Positions 686 to 57,419 are shown, counted from the first letter of the stretch. The stretch: 64,000 nucleotides of DNA from Spirochaetaceae bacterium (GCA_051531975.1 JAOPTT010000002.1:1-64000); one strand, 5' to 3'. Notes: a model not told the origin generated them from the sequence alone. Numbers and translations are program-made.

Positions 686-3208
686 ATGAATCCAAAAGAG
701 TTACCAGTATATAAAGAAAAACAAAGAATATTAGATGCACTAGAACATAATCAGGTTATAATTGTAGAAAGCCCTACAGGTTCTGGTAAAACAACACAAA
801 TACCACTTATTTTAAACGAAGCTGGATATGCTTCTAAAGGTGTTATTGGAATAACTCAACCTAGAAGAATTGCAACACTTTCTGTTTCAGAATATATGGC
901 AAAACAACTTAAAGTAACAGTACCTGGTTTTGTTGGATATAAAATGAGATTCGACGATCAAACAGTTCCATCAACGGCACTAAAAATAATGACAGATGGT
1001 ATACTGTTACAAGAGATAAAACATGACCCATTACTGAGTGCTTACTCTGTTATGATGGTTGATGAGGCACACGAAAGAAGTCTAAATATAGATTTTGTAT
1101 TAGGTCTATTAAAAAATGTTTTAAAAGAACGTAAAGATTTTAAAGTAATAATATCTTCAGCAACACTAAATACCCAAAGCTTTTCAGACTACTTTTTTAA
1201 AGCTCCAATAATAACAATAGAGACAGTACCATATGTAGTAAATATGATGTATCACCCGTTAAAATCCGACCACACCGATGACCTAATAAAGGCAATTGCT
1301 GATACCGTTGAAAGAAACGTTATGAACAAAAGTAAGGGTGATGGAGATATATTAATATTTTTATCTGGAGAGAAACTTATTAAAGATACAGTTACAGCTT
1401 TAGAAGCTAGTAGTGTCTTTAAAAAACTTTTTATTATCCCTCTATATGGAAGGTTAAGTAAGGAAGAGCAAGAGAAGATTTTTATGAAGACCCCGTTGTT
1501 TAAAACTAAAGTTGTAGTTTCTACTAACATAGCAGAAACAAGTGTAACTATAGACGGTATTACAATTGTTTTAGACTCAGGTTTAAGTAAACTTAACTTC
1601 TATAATCCCCATACTTTTACCTCTTCGTTAATTGAGAACTCAATATCTAAGGCTTCAGCTGACCAGAGAAAAGGTAGAGCTGGTAGAACTGCACCAGGAA
1701 CTTGTTATCGGTTTTACTCTAAAAACGATTACGATATTAAAGATAGATTTACCAGAGAAGAGATTTTTAGAACCGACCTGTCAGAGGTTGTACTTAGAAT
1801 GTCAGAGATAGGAATTACAGACTTCCACTCTTTTGACTTTTTATCATCTCCAGGAAAACAAGGAATTACAGGAGCAGTTAATACCTTAAATCAGTTTGGA
1901 GCACTTAACTCAGATAATACTTTAAGCAGTATTGGTGACATGATGGTAATGTTTCCACTTCTACCTAGACATTCTAGAATGATAGTAGAGTCAATTTTAC
2001 GATATCCAGATGTTCTAAACGAAGTAATAATTGCTACAAGTTTTATAAGTACAAGAAGCCCTTTTACTTTTGTACAAGGTGAAGAGTTGGCATCTAGGGA
2101 AGCCCATGCATCTTTTGGAGATGCCAACGGAGATTTTAGTGCCTACTTAAAACTATATAAAATGTTTAACGATGCTGCTAAAAAAGATAAGTTTTGCAAA
2201 AGATTTTATTTAGATGAAAAAATAATGCACGAAATAATTAATATACACGAGCAGTTAAGTTCAATTGTTAGTGAAATGGGGATACCAATATCCGATAGTG
2301 GAAACTTTAACTTTAAAGAGTACATTATTAGTTTGGCTGCAGGTCTGATTCAATTTATTGGTGCAAAAAATGGTCGAGGTGTTTATAGAACCCCAACAAC
2401 TGATAAAGTAATTATACACCCTGGTTCTGTGCTGTTTAGAGAGAAACCAGATTTTATTGTAGCTGGTGAGATTGTAAAAACTAGTAGAATGTATGCAAGA
2501 AGTGTAAGCCCATTAAAGAAGCAGTGGATTAAAGATATATCTGAAGAGTTATACCTTAACCTAATTACTGGTGGAATGATAAAAGGTGATAAAAGACCTA
2601 GAAGAGAGAAAGAGCTACCTAGAAACACTAGGGAAAGAGATACTACTAATAACCTAAGTATTGGGAAGTTCATGTTCCCAATTTCCCAGGTTAGTGGTAA
2701 AAAATATATAGTTTTACAATGGAATGAGCTAAAACAGGCATTAAACCAGACAAAATGGGACGAAATTCCTCAGTTTGGTAATTTACGAGGTGAACTTAAA
2801 TATAAAAACTTTATTATATTAAAAGAAGCAAAGGTTAATAAAATATTTAAGGCTGCTAAGTTAATAGATCCTACTAAAGAGATATTAGATGATTTTCCAA
2901 AAGAGACGTTTCATATTAACAACATAGAGGATTTAGAGAAAATACTAATTCCAGCAATTGGTTTCACAATGAATTTGACCCCGGTTAGTAAAAAGAAGAA
3001 AAACAAAAATGAACTAGGGTTTTTAAGTCTTAATACTGATAATAATGGAACCTATTGGTTTAAATGTACAAAAAGATTTAATACAGCTCTTAACCAGAGT
3101 GTAGAAGCAATTGGGTCTTTATCGAATAATACAAAAGACCAGATATCCCAGGAAAGTAGGGAAAAAATTAACCTAATTTATGGGAAACTGGACTCTTTTT
3201 ACTTATAA
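686..3208 (+). CDS. hrpA: ATP-dependent DEAH-box RNA helicase HrpA
   Basis: GSGKTTQ (motif I), TQPRRIA, DEAHERS, SAT, STNIAETSVTIDG, QRKGRAGR, HA2-like region. Confidence 0.92.
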   Translation: MNPKELPVYKEKQRILDALEHNQVIIVESPTGSGKTTQIPLILNEAGYASKGVIGITQPRRIATLSVSEYMAKQLKVTVPGFVGYKMRFDDQTVPSTALKIMTDGILLQEIKHDPLLSAYSVMMVDEAHERSLNIDFVLGLLKNVLKERKDFKVIISSATLNTQSFSDYFFKAPIITIETVPYVVNMMYHPLKSDHTDDLIKAIADTVERNVMNKSKGDGDILIFLSGEKLIKDTVTALEASSVFKKLFIIPLYGRLSKEEQEKIFMKTPLFKTKVVVSTNIAETSVTIDGITIVLDSGLSKLNFYNPHTFTSSLIENSISKASADQRKGRAGRTAPGTCYRFYSKNDYDIKDRFTREEIFRTDLSEVVLRMSEIGITDFHSFDFLSSPGKQGITGAVNTLNQFGALNSDNTLSSIGDMMVMFPLLPRHSRMIVESILRYPDVLNEVIIATSFISTRSPFTFVQGEELASREAHASFGDANGDFSAYLKLYKMFNDAAKKDKFCKRFYLDEKIMHEIINIHEQLSSIVSEMGIPISDSGNFNFKEYIISLAAGLIQFIGAKNGRGVYRTPTTDKVIIHPGSVLFREKPDFIVAGEIVKTSRMYARSVSPLKKQWIKDISEELYLNLITGGMIKGDKRPRREKELPRNTRERDTTNNLSIGKFMFPISQVSGKKYIVLQWNELKQALNQTKWDEIPQFGNLRGELKYKNFIILKEAKVNKIFKAAKLIDPTKEILDDFPKETFHINNIEDLEKILIPAIGFTMNLTPVSKKKKNKNELGFLSLNTDNNGTYWFKCTKRFNTALNQSVEAIGSLSNNTKDQISQESREKINLIYGKLDSFYL

Positions 3209-3211
3209 GGT
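3165..3211 (+). repeat. 47-bp direct repeat, copy 1 (3' end of hrpA)
   Basis: Matches 4189-4235 at 44/47 nt. Confidence 0.95.
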
Positions 3212-3247: not shown

Positions 3248-3673
3248 TTAAACTGCCTCATCAATAAACACTTGTTCAGGCACATTGTACTTTTTTGCTA
3301 GTGCTTTTATATGATTAAGATTAAGGTTTCGTTTCCCTGATAATATTTCACTAAGAACTGTTCGAGATATAATGTTAGATAAAGAGGTTTGTGTATCACC
3401 TCTATCTTCCATTAAATACTTCAGAGCTTGCACTCCTGTACCTTTTATTTTTGATTGAGTAGTTTCATATGCCCTTAGTATATCTAAAACTCTAAGATAA
3501 ATAGCTCTTAAGTAGTCAACACCATCGTTAACTCTCTCAAAAAGAGCTAATGCAAAATCCTCTACAATAATTGCATCATCATCTGATTCAATTGATAAGT
3601 TCGAAACATATAAAAGGAGTTGTTGTAACTCTGACAACTCTGTGAACTTTGGTTTTAATTCAATTTTATTCAC
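3248..3673 (-). CDS. higA: HigA-type antitoxin, XRE helix-turn-helix
   Basis: C-terminal ALKYLMEDRGDTQTSLS...SEILSGKRNLNLNHIKALAKKYNVP; directly downstream of higB. Confidence 0.85.
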   Translation of the reverse strand: MNKIELKPKFTELSELQQLLLYVSNLSIESDDDAIIVEDFALALFERVNDGVDYLRAIYLRVLDILRAYETTQSKIKGTGVQALKYLMEDRGDTQTSLSNIISRTVLSEILSGKRNLNLNHIKALAKKYNVPEQVFIDEAV

Positions 3674-3675
3674 TG

Positions 3676-3981
3676 TTATTTACCTTTCCTCTGTACATAT
3701 TTTCTATCATAATCCTTATGTAGTAAGAACTCTACAATCAATATACTTTGTCTTCTGTAGTCTATAGCAGTTATTAGTCTATATGTCCCACCACATATAT
3801 TGAAGCAAGTATACATATTTTTATATCCAACCGCATCTGCATGCCGTATAGACTCCCTTAACTCTATGATATGCTTTGGGTGAATATTACTTATATTCTT
3901 AATCCAACCGTTAATAGACTCTCTAGCTGTAGGATATTTATTAACAATCCTACGTAGTTTGGCTTCTGTTTCAATTATCAA
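3676..3981 (-). CDS. higB: HigB-family mRNA interferase toxin
   Basis: ADAVG...TCFNICGGTYRLITAIDY...LLHKDYD matches the HigB FNIxGNxYRL...HxEYD pattern; toxin-first gene order. Confidence 0.85.
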   Translation of the reverse strand: MIIETEAKLRRIVNKYPTARESINGWIKNISNIHPKHIIELRESIRHADAVGYKNMYTCFNICGGTYRLITAIDYRRQSILIVEFLLHKDYDRKYVQRKGK

Positions 3982-4238: not shown

Positions 4239-4267
4239 ACCTAGCTATAGCTAGGTTATAGCTAGGT
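4239..4267. terminator. Perfect 18-bp palindrome ACCTAGCTATAGCTAGGT plus an 11-bp tandem duplication; likely terminator
   Basis: Lies between the orphan hrpA tail and the convergent aroB stop. Confidence 0.5.
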
Positions 4268-35349: not shown

Positions 35350-35643
35350 TTAAACACTAAGTTCTATATGATTTTTCTTAATATTATCCTGAAACTCTTT
35401 TGGTAAATCAGCCCAGATAAATAGATCCACTCTAAATGTTATATCACTCTCTTGTAAAGATTCACGAAGATTAAAAACATTATCATTATTATTAGTAAAA
35501 ACAACCATATCTAGATCAGAGTAGTTACTATACTGTTCTGTTATCCGAGAACCATAAACCCACACGACCACATTAGGAATATTATCTTTAATAAGTAATT
35601 TTAATATATTTTGATCTTTTGTAGAGATACCTAATTTATTCAT
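35350..35643 (-). CDS. Minimal nucleotidyltransferase (MNT) antitoxin, pair 1
   Basis: VYGSR...SDLDM, RVDL; start placed at ATG 35643, overlapping the HEPN stop. Confidence 0.85.
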   Translation of the reverse strand: MNKLGISTKDQNILKLLIKDNIPNVVVWVYGSRITEQYSNYSDLDMVVFTNNNDNVFNLRESLQESDITFRVDLFIWADLPKEFQDNIKKNHIELSV

Positions 35644-36049
35644 GATACTCAATAATCTTAGAATATAATAATTTAGCATTTTTTATAAAGTCTTCCATTA
35701 AACCGATAGATTCCAGGGCCTTTTCTCCATTATAGTCGTGGGATGTACTTATTCTGGCACTTGCATAACTAAACCACTGTTCAAGGGAACTGTCTAAAAG
35801 AGAGTTTTCAGCTGCAATTCTAAGTATAGGTTTAGGACTATTTGGAACATCAGGTATACCAAGTTCATGTATAAGATATTTTTTTAACAGCTTCCATAGT
35901 GTATCCCAACATGTCTCAAAACGCTGTATAACAGACTCTTGTACAGCCTCTTGAATCAATATATCCAAAGAGGGGTTAAGTGTTCTATAGTTATTATACT
36001 GTAATTCTAAGTTATTTAATGACTTAATAAACTTACTATAATCAATCAT
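35636..36049 (-). CDS. HEPN protein (nucleotidyltransferase substrate-binding, HI0074 type), pair 1
   Basis: IQRFETCWDTLWKLLK, SPKPILR, RISTSHDY (RX4H). Confidence 0.85.
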   Translation of the reverse strand: MIDYSKFIKSLNNLELQYNNYRTLNPSLDILIQEAVQESVIQRFETCWDTLWKLLKKYLIHELGIPDVPNSPKPILRIAAENSLLDSSLEQWFSYASARISTSHDYNGEKALESIGLMEDFIKNAKLLYSKIIEYHE

Positions 36050-36117: not shown

Positions 36118-36414
36118 TTATAACTTAAGAAGCACAGAGCTATTTTCAACTTCTGTGGATAACAGTGAGTCTGAAGAGTGATACTGAACAAAATCAACTT
36201 TTAAATCAAAATCTCTTATTGCTAAATAAGTAATAACTTCTATCCTCTTCTTTTTAAACTCTGCAGAGCTAATGTTTGTATCAATCGCAATATCAATATC
36301 TCCGCCTCTTTTACTATCGTCTACTCGACTACCAAATAGATATATATTGACATCATCAAAATAGGTATTTATAGCATTGACTAGAGTTTTAATAATACGT
36401 TTTGATACTCTCAT
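36118..36414 (-). CDS. MNT antitoxin, pair 2
   Basis: YLFGSRVDDSKRGGDIDI, KVDFV. Confidence 0.88.
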   Translation of the reverse strand: MRVSKRIIKTLVNAINTYFDDVNIYLFGSRVDDSKRGGDIDIAIDTNISSAEFKKKRIEVITYLAIRDFDLKVDFVQYHSSDSLLSTEVENSSVLLKL

Positions 36415-36887
36415 GTTAAATACCTATTTGCAAATTGAATGCTGTTTAGATAATAGAGCTCTATCTTAGAAAAATTATCTATACAAAATTTTAAGTCTTT
36501 TAAAGCTTCAGTAAGGTTTTCAGGATAATCGTGTTCAAGTTCATTTCTAACCTCTCTGAGTTCTATCCAACTGTTTAATGAGTCTATAATTTCTTCATTT
36601 TCGATATTATATAAAACTTCACTCATTTTAGAACTATTAACTCCTGCAACTTCAAGTAGCAGAGGGAATACCTTTGCACCTAAAAAGTCCTGTATAGAAC
36701 TAAATCTCTTAAGATAAGCATCTAAAACAGCTCTATCTGTAACACCTAAAGCTTTGAATATATTAGGTTCATAAATATTAGTAGTAGAAGTCATCTCTTG
36801 AATATAAATATAGTAATCTTTAATAGCGATATAATGTTTCTCTAACTTACCTAATCTTTTTTTAAGAATTTCTTTGCTATTTATCAT
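36411..36887 (-). CDS. HEPN-domain protein, pair 2
   Basis: DAYLKRFSSIQDFLGAKVF, WIELREVRNELEHDYP (RX4H); start could be 36887 or 36911. Confidence 0.82.
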   Translation of the reverse strand: MINSKEILKKRLGKLEKHYIAIKDYYIYIQEMTSTTNIYEPNIFKALGVTDRAVLDAYLKRFSSIQDFLGAKVFPLLLEVAGVNSSKMSEVLYNIENEEIIDSLNSWIELREVRNELEHDYPENLTEALKDLKFCIDNFSKIELYYLNSIQFANRYLT

Positions 36888-36932
36888 AATTAAAATACAC
36901 CCCAATACCATATTTACAACACATCTATAGGA

Positions 36933-36994: not shown

Positions 36995-37843
36995 TTACCG
37001 CTTTTGTAGTTTGATACATTCTATTTTACTAATTGGTAGTCCAGATATTTTAGATACTTCTTTAATATCCATACCATTGTTAAGCATTTTAACTACTAGT
37101 TCAGTAATTCCTTCCTGACGACCTTCCTGGCGACCTTCCTGACGACCTTTTTCCACTGAAGACTTCTGAATATAGTTATACTCTTTCCTCTTATGCTGTG
37201 CTTCCAGCTCTTCTTCTGTCATTCCAGCTTCATTTACACTATCCAGTGCATCTTTTACATAACAATCAAGGGTTTGTGGTATATACTCCAGACTTCCGGC
37301 ATTCTTAATAAAATATATCCACTGATCCTTAATATTCTCTAATTCTGATAGATCTTTATTAAATTTAGTAAGTTCTATAAATATTAACTCTATATCATCG
37401 GAATACTGTATAAATGAGTCCTTCTCCAATAGTTTAAACCTACTAATAGCATTCTCAGAATCGGGAAACATATTAAAATCAACTATAGTTAATGCAATTA
37501 CAGGGTTTAACAGAGAGTATTCATCTTTTCTTTTTAACTGTAACGAATAATTTTTTGCAGCATTATACAGTATACGTTTCTCAAAACCCTCATGGTTTAA
37601 AACTTGCATCTCTATTATAACTTTCGTTCCATCATCTAATATCGCCTTAACATCTACATATGTATCCTTCATACCCTGAATCATAGGTATATTGTATGGA
37701 TCAACAATATCTAAGTCCTGAATAGACCTACCATTAGGAAAATCAACTAGGGCATTTAAGAAACTAATTAATATTTTTTTATTCTTGGTACTTCCAAAAA
37801 CTTTTTTAAAAGCAAAATCTGTCTTAACATCTAAAAAATGCAT
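36995..37843 (-). CDS. Rpn family PD-(D/E)XK nuclease (putative transposase family)
   Basis: DFAFKKVFG, VDVKA, IIEMQV, KRILYN, FIELTKF, C-terminal EGRQEGRQEG and ISKISGL. Confidence 0.9.
   Translation of the reverse strand: MHFLDVKTDFAFKKVFGSTKNKKILISFLNALVDFPNGRSIQDLDIVDPYNIPMIQGMKDTYVDVKAILDDGTKVIIEMQVLNHEGFEKRILYNAAKNYSLQLKRKDEYSLLNPVIALTIVDFNMFPDSENAISRFKLLEKDSFIQYSDDIELIFIELTKFNKDLSELENIKDQWIYFIKNAGSLEYIPQTLDCYVKDALDSVNEAGMTEEELEAQHKRKEYNYIQKSSVEKGRQEGRQEGRQEGITELVVKMLNNGMDIKEVSKISGLPISKIECIKLQKR
37110..37149 (-). repeat. Three 12-bp tandem repeats encoding RQEG
   Basis: ccttcctgacga / ccttcctggcga / ccttcctgacga. Confidence 0.9.
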
Positions 37844-37899
37844 TTTATCCTCCAGTTAATTATTTAGTAGTAATATTTATATAAATTCAGATAATATGA

Positions 37900-37952
37900 T
37901 AAATATTATAGTTTCTTTTTATATTTATTCCCATACATCTCATATAGTATTT
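37900..37952 (-). repeat. Degenerate orphan rfbB 3' end plus downstream -10 box
   Basis: 46/54 aligned identities to 40361-40414; still reads KYY-EMYGNK. Confidence 0.75.
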
Positions 37953-38008
37953 ATAACATCCACTAAAGTTTTAATAATACGTTTTCTCCTACCCTTTTGT
38001 GTCTAATA

Positions 38009-39514
38009 TCAAAATTTACTTGCTAAAATAGACCAAAGTTCTTTTGTCTCTAAAAAATGTCTTCGCCACCTTGAGAATACAAGTTCATTATTATCAATTG
38101 ATACAAGAACAAAAAGAGCTTTAAGTACTTTAAAATCAGTCTCATGGTCAATATTTACCCAAGCTTCTTCAGAAAGAGCAATGCTTCGGTGACACAAATC
38201 TATTATTTTTAAAATCTTATCATTACTACTTAAAGGATCAAATGTTTCTTTCAAATATTCAGAATGTTCTTCTGACATCTGTTCCATAGAAGTTGCAAAT
38301 ATTTCAGTATTCTTATAATTTTGATCATCATCAGGAAGGTCCGAGGATATTATATCCATATGATCTTGATGCTCATCTATTATTGTCCCATTCAAATTAT
38401 TTAAAATTTCTTCATTTTTTTTGTGCCATTTATTTACAATATCTCTATAAGTATCTTTTTCTCCAGGATCAAACGAGCTAAAAGCTTCAATTAGTTCAAC
38501 CTGCTCTATAAAATAATTAATATCAGAAGGCTTTCTGTTAAACATAGAGATGATACTAGAAAGTTGATCTTCTACTGTATTCAACTTATTTGAATTTACT
38601 GAAAAATTTAATAATGAAGATCTTTTTTCTATGGGAATAGTAATAAATTTGGAACATAAAAGCTCCAGAAGTTCATCTAATTTAAAAACTTCACTTTTAC
38701 TAAGAACAAAAATTTCAATAACTCTTCTAACATCTTTCAAAACTACCAATGCTTCTTCAATAATTCTTGAAGCACCTATCTGAGTTATAGATTTATAATT
38801 GACAATTTGCGTCTTTAAATTTTCCTCAAAATCATTATTATTAGTGTTTTTATATATAATTTCACTTTGTGTTATATTATCCTCTCTACTTAGAACCTTA
38901 AACCGATTAATAACACTATCAATATTATCATACAAAGGATAAATTCTATCCCATAGCTTTTGTCCATCCATAGTTAGGGGCATCTGAACAGTTTTTTTTA
39001 GAAATCCATTCATCCAATTAACAACTGCTCTGCATTCTGAAGTTGTTATATCCCCTAAAACAAATGCTTTATCCCCAAGTCTATTTTCAATTAAAATAGC
39101 AACGGATAAAATAGCTAGATGATAGGGATACCCTTGTGTTTTACCACCCAATATTTGCGTTCCATTACAATCTACATAAACTAAATCATCTTCGTTAGCA
39201 AAAAGGACATCTTTTGAATTATTAGTAAAACAATGTTTATTGACTTCAAATTTGTAAAGTTCGAATGTTTCAGCCTGTTTCAATGATTTAAGATCACCAG
39301 ATATTTGCCAGTTCTCATCATCCGTTCCTATATTTTCACAAATTTGTTTAGATAATACATACCTTTCATGTCCTGCCACATTGTCCAGTGTCAATCTTAT
39401 TAAATCAACAGGAAAGTTCTTTAGTACTAATTTAGATTCTTCGTAAACACGACTCCACTCTTCCTGAGTAACCCCAGAATCAAAATTAACATATAAATTT
39501 ACAAAAATACCCAT
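38009..39514 (-). CDS. Hypothetical protein, 501 aa
   Basis: Long ORF with RBS GAGGG; no motif that I recognise. Confidence 0.8.
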   Translation of the reverse strand: MGIFVNLYVNFDSGVTQEEWSRVYEESKLVLKNFPVDLIRLTLDNVAGHERYVLSKQICENIGTDDENWQISGDLKSLKQAETFELYKFEVNKHCFTNNSKDVLFANEDDLVYVDCNGTQILGGKTQGYPYHLAILSVAILIENRLGDKAFVLGDITTSECRAVVNWMNGFLKKTVQMPLTMDGQKLWDRIYPLYDNIDSVINRFKVLSREDNITQSEIIYKNTNNNDFEENLKTQIVNYKSITQIGASRIIEEALVVLKDVRRVIEIFVLSKSEVFKLDELLELLCSKFITIPIEKRSSLLNFSVNSNKLNTVEDQLSSIISMFNRKPSDINYFIEQVELIEAFSSFDPGEKDTYRDIVNKWHKKNEEILNNLNGTIIDEHQDHMDIISSDLPDDDQNYKNTEIFATSMEQMSEEHSEYLKETFDPLSSNDKILKIIDLCHRSIALSEEAWVNIDHETDFKVLKALFVLVSIDNNELVFSRWRRHFLETKELWSILASKF

Positions 39515-39562
39515 ATATCCCTCATTACAAGTTAATAGTACTACATAATAATAAATATTATA

Positions 39563-39982
39563 TTAAGGAACTATTTTAATACCTATTTCACTACAGAAAG
39601 AAATAATTGATTTATACTCTTTTGTAGCTATTGCTTTTAATATTTCTAGATTAATCTCTTGATATTCATGTATGGCGATATTTCTAAAACCTGTCATACT
39701 AATCATAGATTTGGATACTGAGCTTGAAATGATCGAATTATTACTTAAAAGAGTGAAAGCCTCTCCACTATTCTGAGGTATACCTAAATGTTTTACAGAT
39801 ACTATATGACCAGCTAAGTCGATTACAGCTTGGCAAGCTCTCTCAATATTTAAAATCATGGCATCAACATGTGTAAAATTATCCAGACTAGGATTAGATG
39901 AAAATTCTTCTAACATACGCCGAAGAGATCTCTCAATTATGGCACCTTTATTAAAAATAATATTATCAGGCTCTATATGCAT
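39563..39982 (-). CDS. hepT: HepT (DUF86) HEPN RNase toxin, pair 3
   Basis: IERACQAVIDLA, GIPQNSGEAF, GFRNIAIHEY. Confidence 0.88.
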   Translation of the reverse strand: MHIEPDNIIFNKGAIIERSLRRMLEEFSSNPSLDNFTHVDAMILNIERACQAVIDLAGHIVSVKHLGIPQNSGEAFTLLSNNSIISSSVSKSMISMTGFRNIAIHEYQEINLEILKAIATKEYKSIISFCSEIGIKIVP

Positions 39983-40358
39983 CTAATATCTCCTTCCGAT
40001 CAATATTAAGTTGAAAATACATTCCTATAAGTGATGAACTATAAATATCGCACTTAGAGACATCTTTTTTATAGATACTTTCACCTCTAAAAAAAGCTTC
40101 GGCAGCATAAACAAGATTCTTAGATGATAATATACCAATATCAACAGATCTACCTAATAAAATCTCTAATTCCCCAGACAAAGTGACTTTATCAAAAGAA
40201 GAAAATTCACAACCATTCTCAAAAAGAATAGCAAGATCTATATCACTATCAGATCTCATTTCACCTCTATAAGCACTTCCAAGAAGATAAACTCCTAAGA
40301 TTCGATTATCATTAATAAAATGAGCTGTAATAATATCTCTAATTTTATCTACATTCAT
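39966..40358 (-). CDS. mntA: MntA adenylyltransferase antitoxin, pair 3
   Basis: YLLGSAYRGEMRSDSDIDLA (GSX10DXD), GRSVDI. Confidence 0.88.
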   Translation of the reverse strand: MNVDKIRDIITAHFINDNRILGVYLLGSAYRGEMRSDSDIDLAILFENGCEFSSFDKVTLSGELEILLGRSVDIGILSSKNLVYAAEAFFRGESIYKKDVSKCDIYSSSLIGMYFQLNIDRKEILDAYRA

Positions 40359-40381
40359 ATTAAATAGTATAGATTCTTTTT

Positions 40382-40450
40382 TTATCTGTTTCCATACATC
40401 TCTTGATAGTATTTTTGGTAATCTCCACCTGCACCCTCATATACCCACCA
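40382..40450 (-). pseudogene. Orphan 3' end of an rfbB allele (WWVYEGAGGDYQKYYQEMYGNR*)
   Basis: 59/69 nt identical to 42867-42935; 7 of the 10 differences are synonymous. Confidence 0.92.
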
Positions 40451-40494
40451 GCATTTCTATTAAAAAAAAGCTTAAATAGTTATGTCTTTCACTG

Positions 40495-41757
40495 TTATAA
40501 AGTCTCATCGGATTCAGGCAGAACCGATTTGATATCATAAACAACACAATTCTTATTTTTGTAATTTTCAAAGTTTATATCTATAAACTTATTATGTGCA
40601 ACAGCAAGAATTATTGAATCAAACTTATTAGAAGATTTTAGTTCTGATAACAGATCTAAATTAAATGCTTTTTTTACATCATTGGCACTAGCCCAAGGAT
40701 CATAAACTGAAACATTACAACCAAACTCTTTTAGCTCTTTTATTATATCAATTACCTTTGTATTTCGAATATCAGGACAATTTTCTTTAAATGTAATCCC
40801 AAGAACTAATACTTTGGAATCCTTAATTGTATGTCCTTTTTTTATCATTAATTTAATGACCTGGTTCCCCACATAGAAACCCATCTGATCGTTAACTCTA
40901 CGACCTGCTAATATAATTTGTGGGTGATACCCTACTTCTTCAGCTTTATGGGTTAAGTAGTATGGATCGACACCTATACAGTGACCACCAACTAAACCAG
41001 GTTTAAAAGGAAGGAAGTTCCACTTTGTACCAGCTGCTTCTAAAACATCTTTGGTATCTATGTTCATTTTATTAAAAATCAGAGATAGTTCATTTACAAA
41101 TGCAATGTTTATATCTCTTTGGGAGTTTTCAATTACTTTTGCTGCTTCTGCAACTTTAATTGAGGGCGCAAGATGAGTTCCTGCAACAATAATACTCTTA
41201 TATAGATCATCTACAACTTTTCCAATTTCCTTGGTAGAACCACTGGTTACTTTTTTTATCTTTGTAACAGTATGTTCTTTATCTCCTGGATTTATTCGTT
41301 CAGGGCTATAACCACAGAAAAAATCTGTATTGAATTTTAATCCAGAATAAGCCTCTAAAACAGGAACACAATCCTCTTCGGTGGCACCTGGATATACTGT
41401 ACTTTCATAGATAACAATATCATCTTTTTTTAAAATCTTTCCAATTGTCTCACTAGCTTTAATTAGTGGCGTTAAATCGGGTTTTCTATTTTTATCTATA
41501 GGAGTTGGAACAGTTACTATAAATATTTGGCAATCTGCAATATCGCTGGTATCACAAGAAAATATCATACCATTGTTTAAAGCTTCCGATACTTGTTCAC
41601 TAGATAGTTCAAGGGTTTTATCAAGACTAGAATTAAGTTCTTTAATTCTAGTTTCAGAAATATCAAAACCAACTACTGAATATTCTGAAGAAAATGCGTG
41701 AGCTAAGGGCAATCCAACATATCCTAAACCTATTATACAAATTTTACTTTTTTTCAT
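40495..41757 (-). CDS. UDP-N-acetylhexosamine 6-dehydrogenase (WbpO/TviB family)
   Basis: GLGYVGLP, VPTP, ESTVYPG, SPERINPGD, GLVGGHCIGVDPYY, FKENCPD. Confidence 0.9.
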   Translation of the reverse strand: MKKSKICIIGLGYVGLPLAHAFSSEYSVVGFDISETRIKELNSSLDKTLELSSEQVSEALNNGMIFSCDTSDIADCQIFIVTVPTPIDKNRKPDLTPLIKASETIGKILKKDDIVIYESTVYPGATEEDCVPVLEAYSGLKFNTDFFCGYSPERINPGDKEHTVTKIKKVTSGSTKEIGKVVDDLYKSIIVAGTHLAPSIKVAEAAKVIENSQRDINIAFVNELSLIFNKMNIDTKDVLEAAGTKWNFLPFKPGLVGGHCIGVDPYYLTHKAEEVGYHPQIILAGRRVNDQMGFYVGNQVIKLMIKKGHTIKDSKVLVLGITFKENCPDIRNTKVIDIIKELKEFGCNVSVYDPWASANDVKKAFNLDLLSELKSSNKFDSIILAVAHNKFIDINFENYKNKNCVVYDIKSVLPESDETL

Positions 41758-41786
41758 TTTAATCCACCTAACTATAATTTATTTAT

Positions 41787-42845
41787 TTATTTATTTATTT
41801 TAAAAAAATCTAAATACCAGTCTACAAAATTATTAACACCAACTTTAATAGATGTAGAAGGTTTATAACCTAAATCATCAACTAAATCTGTTACATCAGC
41901 ATATGTTGCTGGAACATCCCCAGCTTGCAATGGCATAAAATTCTTTTTAATTGGTATTTCTAATTTCTCTTCTATGGCATCAATAAAATCTAATAACTTT
42001 ACAGGGTTATTATTTCCAATATTATATATTTTATATGGAGCAGATGATGTGGAACTTTTTCTATTATCTCCAGTCCATTTTTCGTCTTTTTTAGCAGGAT
42101 TTTTAATAACTCGAAGAATACCTTCTACAATATCATCTATATATGTAAAGTCTCTTAGCATGTTTCCATTATTAAAAACATCTATAGTTTTACCTTCTAA
42201 TGCTGCCTTTACAAACAGAAACAGAGCCATATCAGGTCTACCCCATGGTCCATAAACTGTAAAAAATCTTAGCCCTGTAGTTGATATTCCAAAAAGATGG
42301 GAGTATGTATGAGCCATAAGTTCATTTGATTTTTTTGATGCCGCATACAGAGATATTGGATGATCAACACTTTCATCGGTACTAAATGGTAGACCTTCAT
42401 TAAGTCCATAAACAGAAGATGATGAAGCATAAGATAGGTTTTTAACATCAAAATTTCTACATGATTCTAATATATTTAAAAAACCTGTTATATTTGAATC
42501 TATATATGCTTCTGGATTAGTTAAAGAGTATCTTACACCAGCTTGAGCAGCTAAATTACATACAGCATCAAATTTTTCTTCTCTGAACAGAGTCTCTAAA
42601 TTAACTTTATCTTCTAATTTTAATTTTATAAATCTGTAATTTTTATCAGTTTTAGATTCAATTATTTTATTGTAATCTATGGATTTTGAATCTATACCTG
42701 CTCGATCCAGACGACCATATTTAACATTTATATCGTAATAGTCATTAATACAATCTAAACCAACAATATTAAAATCTTCTGCTAATAACTTTTTAACTAA
42801 ATGACTACCAATAAAACCAGCAGTTCCAGTAACTAATATCTTCAT
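41787..42845 (-). CDS. UDP-glucuronate 4-epimerase family SDR
   Basis: TGTAGFIG, LAAQAGVRYS, ASSSSVYG, YAASKK, RFFTVYGPWGRPDMA. Confidence 0.9.
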   Translation of the reverse strand: MKILVTGTAGFIGSHLVKKLLAEDFNIVGLDCINDYYDINVKYGRLDRAGIDSKSIDYNKIIESKTDKNYRFIKLKLEDKVNLETLFREEKFDAVCNLAAQAGVRYSLTNPEAYIDSNITGFLNILESCRNFDVKNLSYASSSSVYGLNEGLPFSTDESVDHPISLYAASKKSNELMAHTYSHLFGISTTGLRFFTVYGPWGRPDMALFLFVKAALEGKTIDVFNNGNMLRDFTYIDDIVEGILRVIKNPAKKDEKWTGDNRKSSTSSAPYKIYNIGNNNPVKLLDFIDAIEEKLEIPIKKNFMPLQAGDVPATYADVTDLVDDLGYKPSTSIKVGVNNFVDWYLDFFKINK

Positions 42846-42866
42846 ATTTTATATCCTTTTGTGAAA

Positions 42867-44078
42867 TTATCTATTTCCATACATCTCTTGATAATATTTC
42901 TGATAATCACCACTAGCAACTTCAGATACCCACCACTGGTTATCTAAATACCACTGTATTGTTTTTTTTATACCAACAGTAAAGGGAGTTTCAGGATAAA
43001 AACCTAACTCTTTTACTGTTTTAGTAGGATCAATTGCATACCGTGCGTCGTGACCAAGTCTATCTTGTACATATGTAATTAAGTTATATGAACAATCGGC
43101 ATAGCTCACTGTTACAAAGTCTGAATATTCAGGTTTAACAACTCCATCGATAAAAACTAGCTCTCTAACAATATCAATTGTCTGTTTTACAATATTGATA
43201 TTTAACTCTTCGTTAAATCCACCAATATTATATGCTTCTGTTAACTTTCCTTTTCTAATTACCATATCGATACCTTTACAGTGATCGTCTACATATAACC
43301 AGTCCCGAACTTGTTTACCATCTCCATAAACAGGTAGTTTTTTACCAGATAGTATGTTTTTAATAATAAGTGGAATTAGTTTTTCAGGAAAATGAAAAGG
43401 ACCATAGTTATTACTACATCTAGTTACATTAACTGGAAAATGATATGTGGCAGCATATGCCCGAACTAACATGTCAGCTGCAGTTTTAGATGTGGCATAA
43501 GGTGATCTTGGTTTCAGCGATGTCTCTTCTGTAAAAAACTCAGTTCCAAATGCTTTTGGCATTACGTATCTATCTTTTAAAACTGATTTTAAGGCATCGT
43601 TTGTAGCTTCTAAAGTTATTCCATCTGGTATATCTTTTTCTAGATCTCCATATACTTCATCAGTAGATACCTGTAAAAACTTCTTACCAGAGATAAAAGT
43701 AGGATACCCTTGTTCATCTTTGCCATTGCTCCAGTGATCTTTTGCAACGTCCATTAAGGTTTGAGTACCAATTATATTAGTTTTTAAAAAGATACCTGGG
43801 TCTTCAATTGATCTATCAACATGGGATTCTGCAGCAAAGTTTACAACAGTATCAATATCATGGCTCATAAAAATATTTTCAACTAATTCACTGTTACAAA
43901 TATCACCTTTATAAAAAGAGACACGACTATCAGCTATATCTTCTTTAATAGTTCCTAAATTACCTGCATATGTTAATTTATCTAATATAATTACTTTACA
44001 ATCTGAGTGTTTGTTAAGTATGTATTTTACAAAGTTTGCTCCGATAAAACCTGCTCCACCTGTTACTAAATATTTCAT
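42867..44078 (-). CDS. rfbB: dTDP-glucose 4,6-dehydratase, long form with internal insertions
   Basis: TGGAGFIG, AAESHVDRS, STDEVYG, SPYATSK, CSNNYGP, RDWLYV, DRLGHDARYA. Confidence 0.95.
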   Translation of the reverse strand: MKYLVTGGAGFIGANFVKYILNKHSDCKVIILDKLTYAGNLGTIKEDIADSRVSFYKGDICNSELVENIFMSHDIDTVVNFAAESHVDRSIEDPGIFLKTNIIGTQTLMDVAKDHWSNGKDEQGYPTFISGKKFLQVSTDEVYGDLEKDIPDGITLEATNDALKSVLKDRYVMPKAFGTEFFTEETSLKPRSPYATSKTAADMLVRAYAATYHFPVNVTRCSNNYGPFHFPEKLIPLIIKNILSGKKLPVYGDGKQVRDWLYVDDHCKGIDMVIRKGKLTEAYNIGGFNEELNINIVKQTIDIVRELVFIDGVVKPEYSDFVTVSYADCSYNLITYVQDRLGHDARYAIDPTKTVKELGFYPETPFTVGIKKTIQWYLDNQWWVSEVASGDYQKYYQEMYGNR

Positions 44079-44080
44079 GA

Positions 44081-44923
44081 CTAACCCCTATATTCTTTTA
44101 AAAATCTATCAATACCACTCTGCCAACTAGGAATTTTTTTACCTATAACAGATTCTAACTTACTACTATCTAATTTTGTATATTCTGATCTTTTAGCTGG
44201 CAATTTGAAGTCGACCGTTTTTGCAGTTCCTAACTCACCTTTCCATCCAATAGAGTCTAAAACATACTTAGCCTGATCAAACTTACTACACTCTCCACCG
44301 TTACTTAGATGATATAACCCAAAAGCATCAGTTTTAATAAGTTCCCATGAATATTCTGCCAAATCCCATGAATATGTAGCAGAGGACTTCTGATCATCTA
44401 CTATATTTAATTTATCTCTGTTCTCTGACCAACCAATAACCTGTTTATTAAAGTTATTATTTCCCATTCCAAATACCCAGGAAGTTCTAATTACAAAACT
44501 TTTATTATAGGAATCAAGAACACCTTGCTCACCCTGATATTTACTATCAGCATATACAGATATTGGGTTAGGAATATCAGACTCAACATAAGCCAGCCCC
44601 TTTGTCCCATCAAATACAAAGTCTGTTGAATAAGTAATATAAACAGCACTGATCTCTGATGCAATATTGGCCAATAAAACTGGAGCATCCCTATTTAATA
44701 AAAATGCCTTATCTGGTTCACTTTCAGCCTTATCAACATCATTATATGCAGCACAATTTATAATATATTTAATATTTTTACCAGTAACAAATTCCCTAAC
44801 AGCATCAATATAAGTAATATCAAGGTCCATATAGTCAGTAGCTATATAATCTAAATCTAAACCACTAAATAGTTTCTGAAAATCCTGCCCTAGTTGACCA
44901 TTTGCTCCAGTTAATAGAATCAC
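44081..44923 (-). CDS. rfbD: dTDP-4-dehydrorhamnose reductase
   Basis: TGANGQLG, CAAYNDVDKAE, STDFVFDG, YADSK, RTSWVF. Confidence 0.95.
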   Translation of the reverse strand: MILLTGANGQLGQDFQKLFSGLDLDYIATDYMDLDITYIDAVREFVTGKNIKYIINCAAYNDVDKAESEPDKAFLLNRDAPVLLANIASEISAVYITYSTDFVFDGTKGLAYVESDIPNPISVYADSKYQGEQGVLDSYNKSFVIRTSWVFGMGNNNFNKQVIGWSENRDKLNIVDDQKSSATYSWDLAEYSWELIKTDAFGLYHLSNGGECSKFDQAKYVLDSIGWKGELGTAKTVDFKLPAKRSEYTKLDSSKLESVIGKKIPSWQSGIDRFLKEYRG

Positions 44924-45486
44924 TTTTTTGCACCTATAGAAGCATCTTTAAAGTCTTTAAAACTCTTTAAAACTAGGTCTTTATCAGAAAAAGAGAGATC
45001 ATCTACTAAAGGCCACTTTATATTAATATCAACATCATTCCAAATAATTCCAGAATCATGAATTGGATCATACTCTGCAGTGCATTTATATAAAAAGTGA
45101 GTATTGTCTTTTAAAGTAACAAAACCATGTCCAAAACCAGCAGGCACATAAAGCATAGTATTGTTCTCTTCTGTTAGCTCAATACCATACCACTGTCCAA
45201 AAGTAGAAGAGTTTGGTCTTAGATCTACAACAACATCCCAAACAGCTCCTTTAATAACTCGTACAAGTTTACCTTGAGCAGAATTCCCTGTCTGAAAATG
45301 AATACCTCTTAGAACCCCTCGAGAAGAGAAAGAGTGATTATATTGCACAAATTCGTCATTTATTCCAACAGCGATAAAGTCACTTTTTTTATAAGTTTCC
45401 ATAAAAAAACCTCGCCCATCAGCAAAAACTCTAGGCTCAATTATTAATAAATCTTTAATGGATGTTTCTACAAAATTAAAAGGCAA
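44920..45486 (-). CDS. rfbC: dTDP-4-dehydrorhamnose 3,5-epimerase
   Basis: [33 protein letters not shown]. Confidence 0.95.
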
Positions 45487-46357
45487 AATGAGACTCCTTG
45501 GCTATTAGATTCAGATATTTACCATAATTATTTTTTTTATACTTATCTGCAAGAACCAACAGTTGATCTTTATCTATAAATCCCATTCTATAAGCTATTT
45601 CTTCTATACAAGCTATTTTTAATCCCTGCCTATCTTCTATTAATTTAACATAGTTAGAAGCTTCTAATAGAGAGTCATGGGTTCCAGTATCAAGCCAAGC
45701 GTGACCTCGACCCATTATAGAAACACTAAGATCACCTCGTTTTAAATACTCCTGATTAACAGTAGTAATCTCAATTTCACCACGTTTTGAAGGTTTTACA
45801 TTTTTTGCGATTTCAATAACACTATTATCATAAAAATATAGACCAACAACAGCATAATTTGATTTTGGATTAGTAGGTTTCTCTTCTAAAGAGATAGCTT
45901 TACCAGCTTTATCGAACTCAACAACACCATATCGTTCTGGATCCTGAACATAGTAACCAAAAACCTCAGCACCACTTTTTAATTTAGCAGCATTTTGTAA
46001 CATAACGGAGAGTTCATGACCATAAAATATATTATCGCCTAGAACTAGACATACATTATCTGATCCAATAAATTCAGCACCTATAATAAATGCTTCTGCT
46101 AATCCATTTGGTGCATCTTGTATCTCGTAAGAGAACTTCATTCCTAAAGCACTACCATCTCCTAATAGAGACTCAAACCTAGAGGTATCCTCTGGTGTTG
46201 ATATTATTAAAACTTCTTTTATCCCTGCTAACATTAAAGTTGATAATGGGTAGTAGATCATAGGTTTATCGTAAACTGGTAATAACTGCTTACACACTGT
46301 CTCTGTCGCGGGATAGAGTCTAGTTCCACTACCACCTGCTAATATAATTCCTTTCAT
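45476..46357 (-). CDS. rfbA: Glucose-1-phosphate thymidylyltransferase
   Basis: [45 protein letters not shown]; start ATG 46357. Confidence 0.95.
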
Positions 46358-47136
46358 TTTATCCCCTTTATAAACCAAGTTATGATTGTATCCATTCTTC
46401 TTTTAAAAGATCCTGGTATATTTACTTTATATCCCAGTACTTTTTTAATCTCAGGTTCTTCTTTTATCTCTGCTAATGCATAAAATATTAGTTTATCGTC
46501 ATAATTATATATAATAAAATTTGCTCTCTGCCCCTCTTCTTCTATTGCTTTAAAAAGAGATAAAACTGTCATATTGGTTAAGTTTTGCATCTGCAACCAG
46601 ATAGTATCAGAAGTTGTCTTTGTCACTAACTTGTACTTATTAGACCCAAATGTACTATCTTTTTGGTAATAATACATAACTTCTTTCAATGGTAATGATG
46701 TAGCTATTGGATCAGGTAGTTTTTTCTTTAAGTTTTCACCTAAATAATAAGATTTTTTAATAAGTGGATACATTTTTTTTCTGTTAGATGAATAATACTC
46801 TAAACCTTCTTGTTTTGAGAATGCCCGAATATTATTTAATAATGTAACCATCAGATCACTTTCTGGGATATTAGGTTTATCAAAAACAAATAACATCTCT
46901 ACACATAGTTCTGGATCATATTGCTTAATAGTATTGATAATATCATCGGTTAATTCCATCCCTACCGGTAGTAGCTCAAATCCATTTTTATAATCAACTC
47001 TTAATCTATCAGTATATTTCCCTTCTTCTAATCGCCTAATGTCAGTATCAGTTAAACCTGGAATAACAGTTTTCCAACTATCTGCAGCTAAATTGAGTGT
47101 AATAAAAGTTAAAGTTATTAAAATAATCTTATTCAT
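46354..47136 (-). CDS. Secreted hypothetical protein, paralogue of 48339-49133
   Basis: Signal peptide; shares [10 protein letters not shown], YYQKDx[17 protein letters not shown]. Confidence 0.8.
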
Positions 47137-47138
47137 AA

Positions 47139-48302
47139 TTAATCCCTTTTATACAGGTCTCTAGTATAAACTTTATCCTCTACATCAGCTAAATCTGAAC
47201 ATAGTCTATTTGTAACAATGACATCGGAAATATTTTTAAAATCGGATAAAGATTTTATTACTTTAGAATGGTAAAATTCATCATCATCAAAAGTGGGCTC
47301 AAATATAACTACAACGATACCTTTTGCTTTAATTCTCTTCATTATACCCTGAATTGCAGAAGCTCTAAAGTTATCGGAATCCATCTTCATGGTAAGTCTG
47401 TATATTCCAACAACAGATGGGTTTTTACTTATTATCATATCTGCAATGTGGTCTTTTCTGGTTGTATTTGCATCAACAATTGCACTTATAATATTATTAG
47501 GTACATTGTTGTAATTAGCCCGTAGTTGTTTGGTATCTTTTGGTAGACAATAACCTCCATAACCAAAGGAAGGGTTATTATAATGGTCACCTATTCTTGG
47601 ATCTAGACAAACACCTTCTATAATCTGCTTACTATTTAAACCTCTATGCTCAGCATAGGTATCTAACTCGTTAAAATATGATACTCGAAGGGCTAAATAT
47701 GTATTAGAAAAAAGTTTAACAGCCTCTGCTTCAGTACTATCTACAAATAGAGTATCTATATTCTCTTTAATAGCACCTCCTGCTAATAGTCCAGCAAATA
47801 CTTTAGCACGTTCTGAAATCTCACCTACAATAATTCTAGATGGGTGTAAGTTATCGTATAAAGCACTACCTTCTCTAAGAAATTCGGGGCTAAAAATTAT
47901 ATTATTTGTATTAAACCTAGCATTTACAGATTTGGTATAACCAACAGGAACAGTAGATTTAATAACCATAGTTGCTGTAGGATTTATAGCTAATACATCT
48001 TCTATTACACTTTCGACAGTAGAAGTATTAAAATAGTTTTTCTCTTCATCATAATCAGTAGGAGTCGCAATAATAATATATTCTGCATCAGCATACTCAG
48101 CTTTATTTAAACTTGCTTTTAAATTAAGGTTACCACTTGCTAAATATTCAGAGATTTCTTTATCCACAATTGGAGATTTCCCACTATTAATTAATTCAAC
48201 TTTAATTGCATCTATATCTACTGCTACAACTTCATTATTTTGTGCTAATAAAACAGCGTTTGATAATCCTACATATCCTGTTCCAGCTATACAAATTTTC
48301 AT
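47139..48302 (-). CDS. ugd: UDP-glucose 6-dehydrogenase
   Basis: [40 protein letters not shown]. Confidence 0.95.
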
Positions 48303-48338
48303 CTTATTATCTCCTGTACCACTTAATGTTCTTTTATG

Positions 48339-56784: not shown

Positions 56785-57387
56785 TCCTTGCCCTCTTTAT
56801 ATCATAATATATTTTAATTAATAATAAAACTTTCATCTGAACTTAATTATATTACTAAGATACTTTATCAAGATAAAATTAACAATATATTAACATGATA
56901 TGATACTGTAAATCTTAAGTTGTTTAACAACCCATTAAAATAGCATATTATCATTATATGATTAACTAATAAAATATTGTAACCCTCAATTATATAAGGG
57001 TAGCATAATCCTGACGATCTCATCTGGAGTGATATTCCAAGATTCTAAGAGCTCTATACCTTAACCTTCCTCAAATAGATGAGTTTTTCAAATAGCCATC
57101 TAAGACAAGCATAAGAATTTATAACATTCAACTTCACTGTATCAATTAAATAATAATAAATACACATTGAATCTGGACTCTCAGTACTTCCAGCGAATAA
57201 GAAGTTTCATTTGCCACATACAGTACCATTTCTATCCCAATTGATACATTCTAGTGTTTTCTTGTATCTCCTACAAAAAAAGGAAAAGACTTATTAATCA
57301 GGAATCCAGGACCATTTATTCTTTAGTAAATATAGTTATACCATTTATCTGTTCTCTAATATCCGTAATTCATGGTCTTACTAATAT

Positions 57388-57419
57388 AGAAATCTATAAG
57401 AAATCTATAAGAAATCTAT
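57388..57419. repeat. Nearly three tandem copies of AGAAATCTATA
   Basis: Read directly from the sequence, inside an ORF-free gap. Confidence 0.85.

Follow-up and report, generated by a model that had tools for sequence, protein, structure and literature searches.

A stretch of 64,000 nucleotides (nt) of a Spirochaetaceae bacterium (GCA_051531975.1 JAOPTT010000002.1:1-64000), analysed as one strand and hereafter called the window, contains two genes whose 3′-ends recur further downstream as isolated fragments. The dehydratase gene rfbB is followed by two such fragments and the helicase gene hrpA by one, all as direct repeats of the end of the intact gene. The fragments are here termed orphans and the ends of the intact genes live tails, and all observations are from this one genome. 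As had been claimed in a sequence-only reading of the same DNA, the orphans bound discrete blocks of genes; they lie in direct orientation, 1.0-2.5 kb downstream of their parents.

Every gene between 31.9 and 50.6 kb is located on the minus strand, in part of a large polysaccharide-synthesis region. Read 5′ to 3′ on that strand, the order is rmlA, rmlC, rmlD, rfbB, an SDR epimerase gene, a TviB-like dehydrogenase gene, a 44-nt spacer and orphan 1, followed by a 23-nt leader, mntA-hepT, a gene for a protein of 501 amino acids (aa), a 165-nt patchwork including orphan 2, a gene of the Rpn family, two further HEPN/MNT pairs and glycosyltransferase genes (Table 1). The live tail is followed by the epimerase and dehydrogenase genes (block 1), orphan 1 by mntA-hepT and the 501-aa gene (block 2), and orphan 2 by the Rpn-family gene, which abuts it. 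At hrpA, a higB/HTH-antitoxin pair is the sole cargo between the two tails and lies on the strand opposite to hrpA.

Table 1. Features at the rfbB and hrpA loci, with positions counted from the first letter of the window.
Feature	Position	Strand	Evidence
rmlA, rmlC, rmlD	44081-46378	-	directly upstream of rfbB
Live rfbB/rmlB, dTDP-glucose 4,6-dehydratase, 403 aa	42867..44078	-	TIGR01181 429.7 bits vs cutoff 365.1; Pfam GDP_Man_Dehyd and Epimerase
Block 1, gene 1: extended-SDR NAD-dependent sugar epimerase/dehydratase, 352 aa	41787..42845	-	Pfam Epimerase 1.6e-55
Block 1, gene 2: TviB-like UDP-N-acetyl-sugar 6-dehydrogenase, 420 aa	40495..41757	-	TIGR03026 402.9 bits, above cutoff
44-nt spacer from dehydrogenase stop codon to orphan 1	40451..40494	-	3′-end is the junction at which rfbB similarity begins abruptly
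Orphan 1: copy of the last 22 codons and stop codon of rfbB	40382..40450	-	59/69, 80.6 bits
Leader from orphan 1 stop codon to mntA start codon	40359..40381	-	19/23 identical to 37898-37920
Block 2: predicted type VII toxin-antitoxin, mntA (39966-40358) and hepT (39563-39982)	39563..40358	-	NF047752 MntA 70.6 bits; NF047751 HepT 127.2 bits
Block 2: 501-aa protein of a widespread family without a name	38009..39514	-	no Pfam, NCBIfam or PADLOC match
5′ fragment of an MNT nucleotidyltransferase gene (about codons 5-17), fused to orphan 2	37947..37985	-	35/39 vs 36365-36403
Orphan 2: last 32 nt of an rfbB tail; 1-nt deletion, no stop codon	37921..37952	-	27/33 to orphan 1
Second copy of the mntA leader, with the Rpn gene behind it instead of mntA	37871..37920	-	65/83 columns over 37871-37952 vs 40340-40414
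Rpn-family (PD-(D/E)XK) recombination-promoting nuclease/'putative transposase'	36995..37843	-	TIGR01784 192.3 bits vs cutoff 52.1
HEPN/MNT-type pair: 166-aa HEPN-like and 98-aa MNT	36118-36911	-	Pfam NTase_sub_bind, Polbeta
HEPN/MNT-type pair: HI0074-type HEPN and MNT	35350-36049	-	Pfam NTase_sub_bind/Polbeta; weak NCBIfam HI0074 and MntA matches
Live hrpA tail: last 14 codons, stop codon and 3 further nt	3165..3211	+	44/47 vs 4189-4235
Orphan hrpA tail, 31 nt upstream of the convergent aroB stop codon	4189..4235	+	72.5 bits, 44/47
higB toxin (3676-3981) and HTH antitoxin (3248-3673)	3248..3981	-	PF09907 HigB_toxin 5.6e-18; PF01381 HTH_3

Orphan copies of the rfbB and hrpA gene ends

The final 69 nt of rfbB (42867-42935) and orphan 1 align at 59 of 69 positions without a gap, and no similarity to rfbB was found in the alignments upstream of position 40450. 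An in-frame TAG is present two codons upstream of orphan 1 and a start codon is missing, and the fragment is therefore untranslatable as part of a gene. Seven of its ten differences from the live tail are synonymous, where random substitution gives an expectation of 1.44 (P = 5e-5; seven or more in 1 of 20,000 trials). Two of the amino acid changes, V to G and S to G, fall at sites kept as V and S in all aligned relatives (among 59 listed, about 46 in register), and the third is at a variable position; the replacements at the two conserved sites would fit decay following displacement or loss of function. After the stop codon, orphans 1 and 2 have a leader in common, which is missing from the live gene; the sequence downstream of the latter matches it in only 15 of 28 columns. 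This difference had been pointed out before, and the earlier coordinates and counts (59/69, 7/10 synonymous and, for orphan 2, 46/54) were all reproduced by alignment and self-BLAST.

Orphan 2 had been described as a more decayed copy of the same tail. Its match to orphan 1 stands, with 46 of 54 columns identical and one 1-nt gap (37900-37952 against 40361-40414; 59.9 bits in self-BLAST), and the similarity continues as far as 37871 (40340 at orphan 1; Table 1). The fragment is not only decayed, however, since its upstream half is a copy of the 5′-end of the 98-aa MNT gene at 36118-36414 (55.4 bits; tblastn E = 0.001). The part that derives from rfbB is equally distant from both other tails, the identity to the live tail being likewise 27/33. 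Six nt (37947-37952; minus strand AAATAC) belong to both the MNT fragment and the tail, and each of the three parent sequences contains them. As read from these alignments, orphan 2 is an MNT gene, truncated at about codon 17, that is joined to position -32 of an rfbB tail through a 6-nt microhomology. Such a joint, in which a gene is cut at an arbitrary point, constitutes direct evidence that illegitimate joining acted here. Microhomology at the second joint is seen at orphan 2 only; the other two joints are readable only with a donor sequence.

Behind the leader copy that follows orphan 2, about 25 more bases resemble the first codons of mntA. An mntA-type leader therefore already followed orphan 2 while it was a live gene end, and the Rpn gene would since have replaced whatever lay behind it. 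This implies that orphan 2 records an extra illegitimate event and that the rfbB-leader-mntA arrangement pre-existed on both of its sides. The MNT fragment is located directly after the 501-aa gene, a hint that the 501-aa gene of the donor had an MNT partner of its own behind it. A two-gene module of the 501-aa and MNT genes is possible, of which the antitoxin-like half is truncated here.

A similar pattern at hrpA (686-3208) had also been reported, and was recovered here. The orphan sits 1 kb downstream of the parent tail, all three differences between the two are synonymous and the same 13 residues are encoded. A perfect stem links the final 8 nt of the live tail to the bases with which the cassette begins (3204-3211/3217-3224), and the orphan is followed by a palindromic spacer before aroB. 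The hairpin suggests that the live tail may have been imported together with higBA, the two being neighbours already in the donor. Two TGTCG...CGACA palindromes upstream of higB (4005-4054) are operator-like, and a perfect palindrome in the presumed ancestral hrpA/aroB spacer (4239-4267) resembles a bidirectional terminator.

Significance of the repeats, genomic background and neighbouring genes

The significance of the repeats was assessed against 100 random 64-kb sequences with the dinucleotide content of the window. The best scores obtained there with the tail queries were 31.9-37.4 bits, compared with 80.6 (orphan 1), 59.9 (orphan 2) and 72.5 bits (hrpA) in the window. By nhmmer, orphan 2 reached E-values of 0.0075 to 0.36 only, and the doubt raised by these weak values is resolved by the empirical control. 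No extra tail copies were found in the window by nhmmer with each tail, and a tblastn search with the 30-aa ends of 57 open reading frames (ORFs) gave the three known intergenic fragments and no others. A 37-nt similarity between 26245-26281 and 29912-29948 lies at the 5′-ends of two genes, each of which encodes a MobA-like nucleotidyltransferase domain at its start; it was rejected as an orphan pair and represents paralogous N-termini.

If a tail were duplicated in place, with the live copy fixing synonymous changes only and a neutral orphan drifting, about 25% of the differences would look synonymous. The probability of the observed patterns under this null is 0.0037 for rfbB and 0.016 for hrpA, or 1.4e-4 combined. 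From the synonymous excess it follows that the paired tails are different functional alleles and that at least one tail of each pair came from foreign DNA. A remnant of duplication in place is accordingly disfavoured for orphan 1 and hrpA; the sequence-only reading had itself set remnants of whole-gene tandem duplication against its proposal. Since most differences of orphan 1 predate its displacement, its percent identity to the live tail reflects allele distance more than age; with orphan 2 equidistant as well, tail identity is no measure for the proposed ordering of the orphans by age. The first orphans of rfbB and hrpA lie on the strand of their parents, 2.5 and 1.0 kb downstream, respectively, for which unrelated landing within the window has a probability of about 0.02. 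This nearness on the same strand implies homology anchoring. The longest identical runs are 20 nt (rfbB) and 31 nt (hrpA), which is near the minimum for efficient RecA-dependent exchange.

A background set was made up of 80 rfbB loci of other species, among the matches listed, and two loci from a plasmid collection, 1.39 Mb in all. A second RfbB C-terminus was found in none of the 80 loci, where the best second match had E = 0.13 compared with 5.5e-10 in the window. A self-BLAST screen for coding 3′-ends that recur between genes no more than 10 kb away detected no coding tail duplicated at an intergenic site in the 82 loci. The four loci that it flagged (L009, L020, L047 and L072) were on inspection found to contain intergenic repeat elements or repeated leaders and not gene tails. 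Intergenic repeat families, comprising repeated gene leaders and palindromic REP/MITE-like units, were noted at 4560-20383 in L009, 8192-12157 in L047 and 13120-15573 in L072. Two independent sites in 64 kb are well above this background, which hints at something particular to the genome or to its toxin-antitoxin load.

Among named species, the nearest relative of this spirochaete host is Thiospirochaeta perfilievii (86% identity for RfbB and 81% for HrpA), and the RfbBs of Fusobacteriota are the next closest with 77% identity or less. The relatives found in a scan of genome contigs with RfbB were at most 74% identical among the matches listed, including a Fusobacteriaceae locus (L001) and a Cetobacterium locus (L003). 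In L001 and in Ilyobacter, rfbB is followed by unrelated genes, and these relatives are too distant to be informative. Among the window proteins looked up, no public relative above 90% identity was found apart from one RfbB, and the closest public relatives have 81-89% protein identity (in metagenomic contigs, 79-84% for HrpA and 83-89% for RfbB, the best of the latter at 88-89%). RfbB itself has 403 aa and, compared with the Pfam and TIGRFAM models, which match it in two stretches, contains an insertion. That this form is common to the spirochaete clade and Fusobacteriota suggests that the rml genes may have been transferred across phyla long ago.

No integrase, resolvase or DDE transposase and no tyrosine or serine recombinase was found in the 58 ORFs scanned across the window, and the window contains no tRNA or tmRNA gene (ARAGORN) and no Rfam family. 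Inverted repeats of 8 nt or more are missing from the live rfbB tail and orphan 1. Perfect-identity runs of 10 nt (rfbB) and 31 nt (hrpA) lie at the upstream edges of the repeats, but are not significant (about 0.2 and 0.04, respectively, by estimate). An 8-mer common to the rfbB and hrpA tails, TATGGRAA, was judged to be due to chance, by estimate only. An integron cassette array was rejected as an interpretation, as no integrase is present among the 58 ORFs and the repeats are coding tails without the structure of imperfect palindromes; a dif-module was likewise rejected, neither an integrase nor symmetric sites being found. The base composition is flat across the blocks, without any step or foreign-looking block, at about 30% G+C in the window. 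The earlier statement that there is no integrase is thus correct for the 58 ORFs scanned, but the adjoining of an Rpn nuclease gene to orphan 2 means that 'no integrase' does not equal 'no DNA-active enzyme'.

A -10 box (TATACT/TATAAT) behind the orphans, which the live gene was said to lack, had been put forward as a distinguishing feature. A weak promoter-like match, TGGAAA-17-TATACT, indeed spans the orphan 1 tail (-35) and the leader (40394->40366, 9/12) and ends 7 nt before the mntA start codon, which has no Shine-Dalgarno sequence. The argument does not discriminate, however: a match of equal score (9/12) exists at the live tail (42873->42846), the -35 element of orphan 2 is under the threshold of the scanner, and neither promoters nor terminators are enriched, with 58 promoter-like matches in 35.0-44.2 kb compared with 54.9 +/- 8.2 in shuffles.

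NCBIfam equivalog matches of the epimerase are all under their cutoffs (110 bits for TviC against 760), and the dehydrogenase scores 571.9 bits with NF011729 TviB, 20 below the cutoff of 592. MntA and HepT, a predicted toxin-antitoxin pair, both exceed the NCBIfam equivalog cutoff of 60, and their genes are adjacent and overlap. The Rpn gene is placed in its family also by PF12784 (1.6e-48; 165.9 bits against a cutoff of 27.4). A RNELEH motif can be read off the sequence of the 166-aa HEPN-like protein. The segment 35350-40450 forms a 5-kb toxin-antitoxin/defence islet inside the polysaccharide operon, with three MNT/HEPN pairs, the Rpn-family gene and the 501-aa gene, and the MNT proteins of the islet match the PADLOC candidate system PDC-S09. 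Just upstream of rmlA (46354-49133), a UDP-glucose dehydrogenase gene lies between two DUF6675 paralogues (68% nt identity over 567 nt), a layout of 'gene - cargo - gene copy' at the scale of whole genes. Elsewhere in the polysaccharide region, no ORF longer than 58 aa occurs in 1.25 kb at 56785-58036, where a gene may have decayed or a regulatory region may lie.

The 501-aa protein belongs to a family with 565 representatives at E<=1e-3, usually 500-560 aa long, in which W20, G154 and W452 are invariant. A high-scoring structural model (pLDDT 92, pTM 0.90) predicts a beta-rich N-terminal domain followed by a long helical domain, and no fold match was found in the PDB at E<=0.001. Nor were any Pfam, NCBIfam or PADLOC family or plasmid match obtained, and the ESM Atlas gave unnamed clusters only. 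The protein has no similarity to the 166-aa HEPN-like protein. From its place in the toxin-antitoxin/defence islet, a function in defence may be suspected.

Origin of the orphan tails

The orphan tails are probably the scars of serial homology-anchored acquisition, a 'sequential displacement' in which the second joint is illegitimate. From the repeats, their direct orientation and proximity, the allele-like divergence, the single joint at a microhomology and the failure to find a recombinase or att features, we infer a route of import, its direction, an order of events and a logic of retention as follows. DNA from a diverged relative, carrying the 3′ part of the gene and different downstream genes, would pair with the resident rfbB or hrpA, and its far end, having no homologue, would form an illegitimate joint some tens of bases before the resident stop codon. 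The outcome would be an intact gene that ends in the tail of the donor and is followed by the new genes, downstream of which the resident tail would be left over as an untranslatable stub. The insert abuts the anchor gene in each case, as illegitimate recombination at an anchor would have it. At rfbB at least two events would be needed, the older bringing mntA-hepT, the 501-aa gene and the truncated MNT gene and the later one the epimerase and dehydrogenase genes, and at hrpA one event with higBA as cargo. Recombinants that delete toxin-antitoxin cargo would be penalised, as would those that lose aroB, 31 nt away. Short and diverged repeats would also be poor substrates for RecA-dependent loop-out, while long ones would let the insert pop out. 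The adjacent Rpn-family nuclease may have supplied breaks or template-switch joining, but it is linked to orphan 2 by association only. Of the mechanisms put forward with the original observation, homology-anchored illegitimate recombination is thus preferred, and the trans-acting recombinase has no candidate among the 58 ORFs.

Several points weigh against this account. The direction, i.e. which tail was resident, and the order of events are proposed without a donor or empty-site sequence, and the order, like the general mechanism suggested earlier, rests on two loci in one 64-kb window. All three joints are inside the anchor gene, 32-69 nt before the stop codon, whereas in simple one-sided illegitimate recombination the DNA of the recipient is usually lost beyond the anchor; survivorship or selection is the only explanation that we can offer. 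The synonymous pattern is equally expected for an element carrying a replacement gene end, so that site-specific integration stays compatible with it. With a leader common to orphans 1 and 2, the older event was not simply new cargo placed behind an old tail, and a local microhomology-mediated duplication could explain orphan 2 without import. The flat base composition across the blocks, the lack of competence genes in the window and a mosaic test of RfbB with 16 relatives in four segments, which gave no signal at poor resolution, add nothing in favour of import. Finally, that toxin-antitoxin addiction would stabilise the array is a proposal.

One alternative is that of integrase-less, satellite or decayed cassettes moved by a recombinase encoded elsewhere, with att sites in the 3′-ends of rfbB and hrpA and stacking in tandem. 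We regard it as unlikely. Direct repeats do flank each block, with one of them restoring the end of the live gene, the tails differ mainly synonymously as expected for replacement tails borne by an element, the blocks are small and self-contained (1.0, 2.4 and 2.4 kb), and the identity runs at the upstream edges lie where a crossover core would be. Yet these runs are not significant, the rfbB and hrpA tails have only the 8-mer in common, dyad symmetry of at least 8 nt is missing from the rfbB tails, and no tyrosine or serine recombinase is encoded by the 58 ORFs scanned. Block 1 moreover consists of ordinary sugar-pathway genes, and the joint of orphan 2 is a truncated gene at a microhomology and not an att site. 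Chance similarity in AT-rich DNA, or an artefact of assembly, is far less credible still and can practically be dismissed. The low G+C content and the nhmmer values of orphan 2 would be in its favour, but the BLAST scores are 18-45 bits over the best of the 100 random sequences, which rules it out for orphan 1 and hrpA, and the copies are diverged and short, hence not collapsed repeats, in a contig of 698 kb.

Local duplication without import, by microhomology-mediated unequal exchange or tandem duplication with later deletions and gene replacement, or by trimming of a second gene copy, is doubtful to the same degree as the recombinase encoded elsewhere. It has its strongest case in orphan 2, the joint of which is precisely what would arise if the rfbB tail had exchanged unequally with an MNT gene downstream, and a full MNT gene with a 5′-end matching at 35/39 does lie 1.5 kb further downstream. 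The leader common to orphans 1 and 2, the equidistance of orphan 2 and the DUF6675 paralogues, which show that segmental duplication occurs at the locus, point in the same direction. Against it stand the synonymous excess at orphan 1 and hrpA, the context upstream of the MNT fragment (the stop codon of the 501-aa gene and 23 nt), which differs from that of the full MNT gene (an overlapping 166-aa gene), and the lack of the second copy of mntA-hepT and the 501-aa gene that would be expected. A trimmed whole-gene duplicate is moreover a sub-variant of sequential displacement, since a second functional rfbB 2.4 kb away would itself require import. Very unlikely, finally, is that tail and leader are retained as a portable promoter travelling with a downstream toxin-antitoxin/defence gene. 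The promoter-like match before mntA, where the missing Shine-Dalgarno sequence is compatible with a leaderless transcript, would suit it, and orphan 2 keeps TGGGAA and TATAAT at a spacing of 17 nt despite an indel just upstream. Such matches are, however, no commoner than in shuffles, the -35 element of orphan 2 is sub-threshold, and the stretch from -35 to -10 (23/29) is conserved no better than its flanks. The orphan of hrpA points towards the aroB 3′-end, where there is nothing that it could drive, and the position of the orphans near their parents is left unexplained.

Related arrays and meaning of the finding

Integration into gene ends is known from e14 and phage 21, which insert in the 3′-end of icd and provide a replacement end, and the tandem stacking of integrase-less cassettes is known from the accretion of cis-mobilizable elements (CIME) and integrative and conjugative elements (ICE) and from tycheposon arrays at tRNA genes. 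Like the orphans described here, such elements have the displaced end at the far side of the insert, mostly synonymous differences and the possibility of stacking; unlike them, the blocks have no integrase in or near them, no att-like symmetry, one microhomology joint and, in block 1, polysaccharide genes. Homology-facilitated illegitimate recombination, in which a one-sided homologous anchor and a microhomology joint trap foreign DNA, was reportedly described for transformable bacteria in 2002 by de Vries & Wackernagel and by Prudhomme et al. and in 2003 by Meier & Wackernagel. In these experiments recipient DNA beyond the anchor is said to be mostly deleted, whereas here the joints all fall within the anchor, so that a short duplication stays behind.

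The nearest counterparts are the arrays of polymorphic toxin loci. In the work of Jackson et al. 2009 (PMC2935791), Rhs genes are followed by silent fragments that repeat the 3′-end of the core, each with a different tip, and it is proposed that homologous recombination with circular intermediates replaces the incumbent by an alternative acquired laterally. An intact gene with 3′ fragments in direct repeat, each heading a different module, silent and decaying and without a dedicated recombinase, is common to that description (PMC2935791) and the loci reported here. What is displaced in Rhs is a polymorphic toxin tip together with the immunity gene that belongs to it, and the repeats of the core are long and almost without divergence. 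At rfbB and hrpA, no variable toxin domain with an immunity gene is involved; the repeated piece is the conserved C-terminus of a dehydratase or helicase, 32-69 nt long and 6-18% diverged, and the cargo consists of whole unrelated genes. Type VI secretion system (T6SS) clusters of Vibrio are described by Kirchberger et al. 2017 (PMC5361080) as gathering orphan immunity genes and 3′ effector ends by successive insertions, with homology-facilitated illegitimate recombination as the proposed mechanism. There as here, insertions are anchored on a conserved upstream region and older modules are shifted downstream. Retention is attributed to selection for immunity there (PMC5361080), while toxin-antitoxin addiction is proposed here, and the T6SS case was shown by a comparison of many strains whereas one genome without effector-immunity logic is at hand here.

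Polysaccharide loci assembled by recombination, with dead gene pieces at the junctions, are likewise familiar from O-antigen clusters, in which gene remnants such as those of Salmonella wzy and of the H-repeat are found at block junctions (Reeves et al. 2013, PMC3715488). The Salmonella remnants are genes inactivated in place or leftovers resembling insertion sequences, not repeated ends of an intact neighbour. Rpn proteins are reported to raise RecA-independent recombination and to make breaks able to prime template switching (PMC5350276). They are now also counted among toxin-antitoxin or defence genes, whose ends vary as they come and go, and a role as transposases is considered unlikely (PMC10400941). 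The Rpn gene next to orphan 2 is a candidate helper and probably also just further cargo.

The orphan tails are real and not an unprecedented kind of recombination scar; what sets them apart from the known arrays is that the ends of housekeeping and sugar-pathway genes are displaced, rather than toxin tips. Little is understood of how toxin-antitoxin and small defence modules spread when neither transposases nor integrases are involved. The value of the finding is limited by its source in one genome without relatives for comparison and by a mechanism that we infer. A bolder generalisation, that this spirochaete lineage stacks cassettes behind the 3′-ends of conserved genes independently of an integrase, as a 'gene-tail-anchored' analogue of the integron, is quite improbable. 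If true, imported or looped-out cassettes, mostly with toxin-antitoxin and defence genes and in part with sugar-pathway genes, would re-enter by pairing over a few dozen bases of a gene end, breaks and template switching of the Rpn type might help to join them, and addiction would make additions irreversible, so that arrays only grow. This would be a concrete route for toxin-antitoxin and defence genes without the machinery of mobile elements.

At two independent sites in 64 kb, such modules have a live gene end on one side and, on the other, an allele-like copy of this end that was displaced, which points to homology-anchored import of toxin-antitoxin and small defence modules. The rfbB locus is in addition a readable record of a polysaccharide locus gaining a UDP-sugar dehydrogenase/epimerase pair. 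Taken together, the two sites suggest that the 'displacement array' logic of polymorphic toxin loci may act at ordinary housekeeping and sugar-pathway genes.

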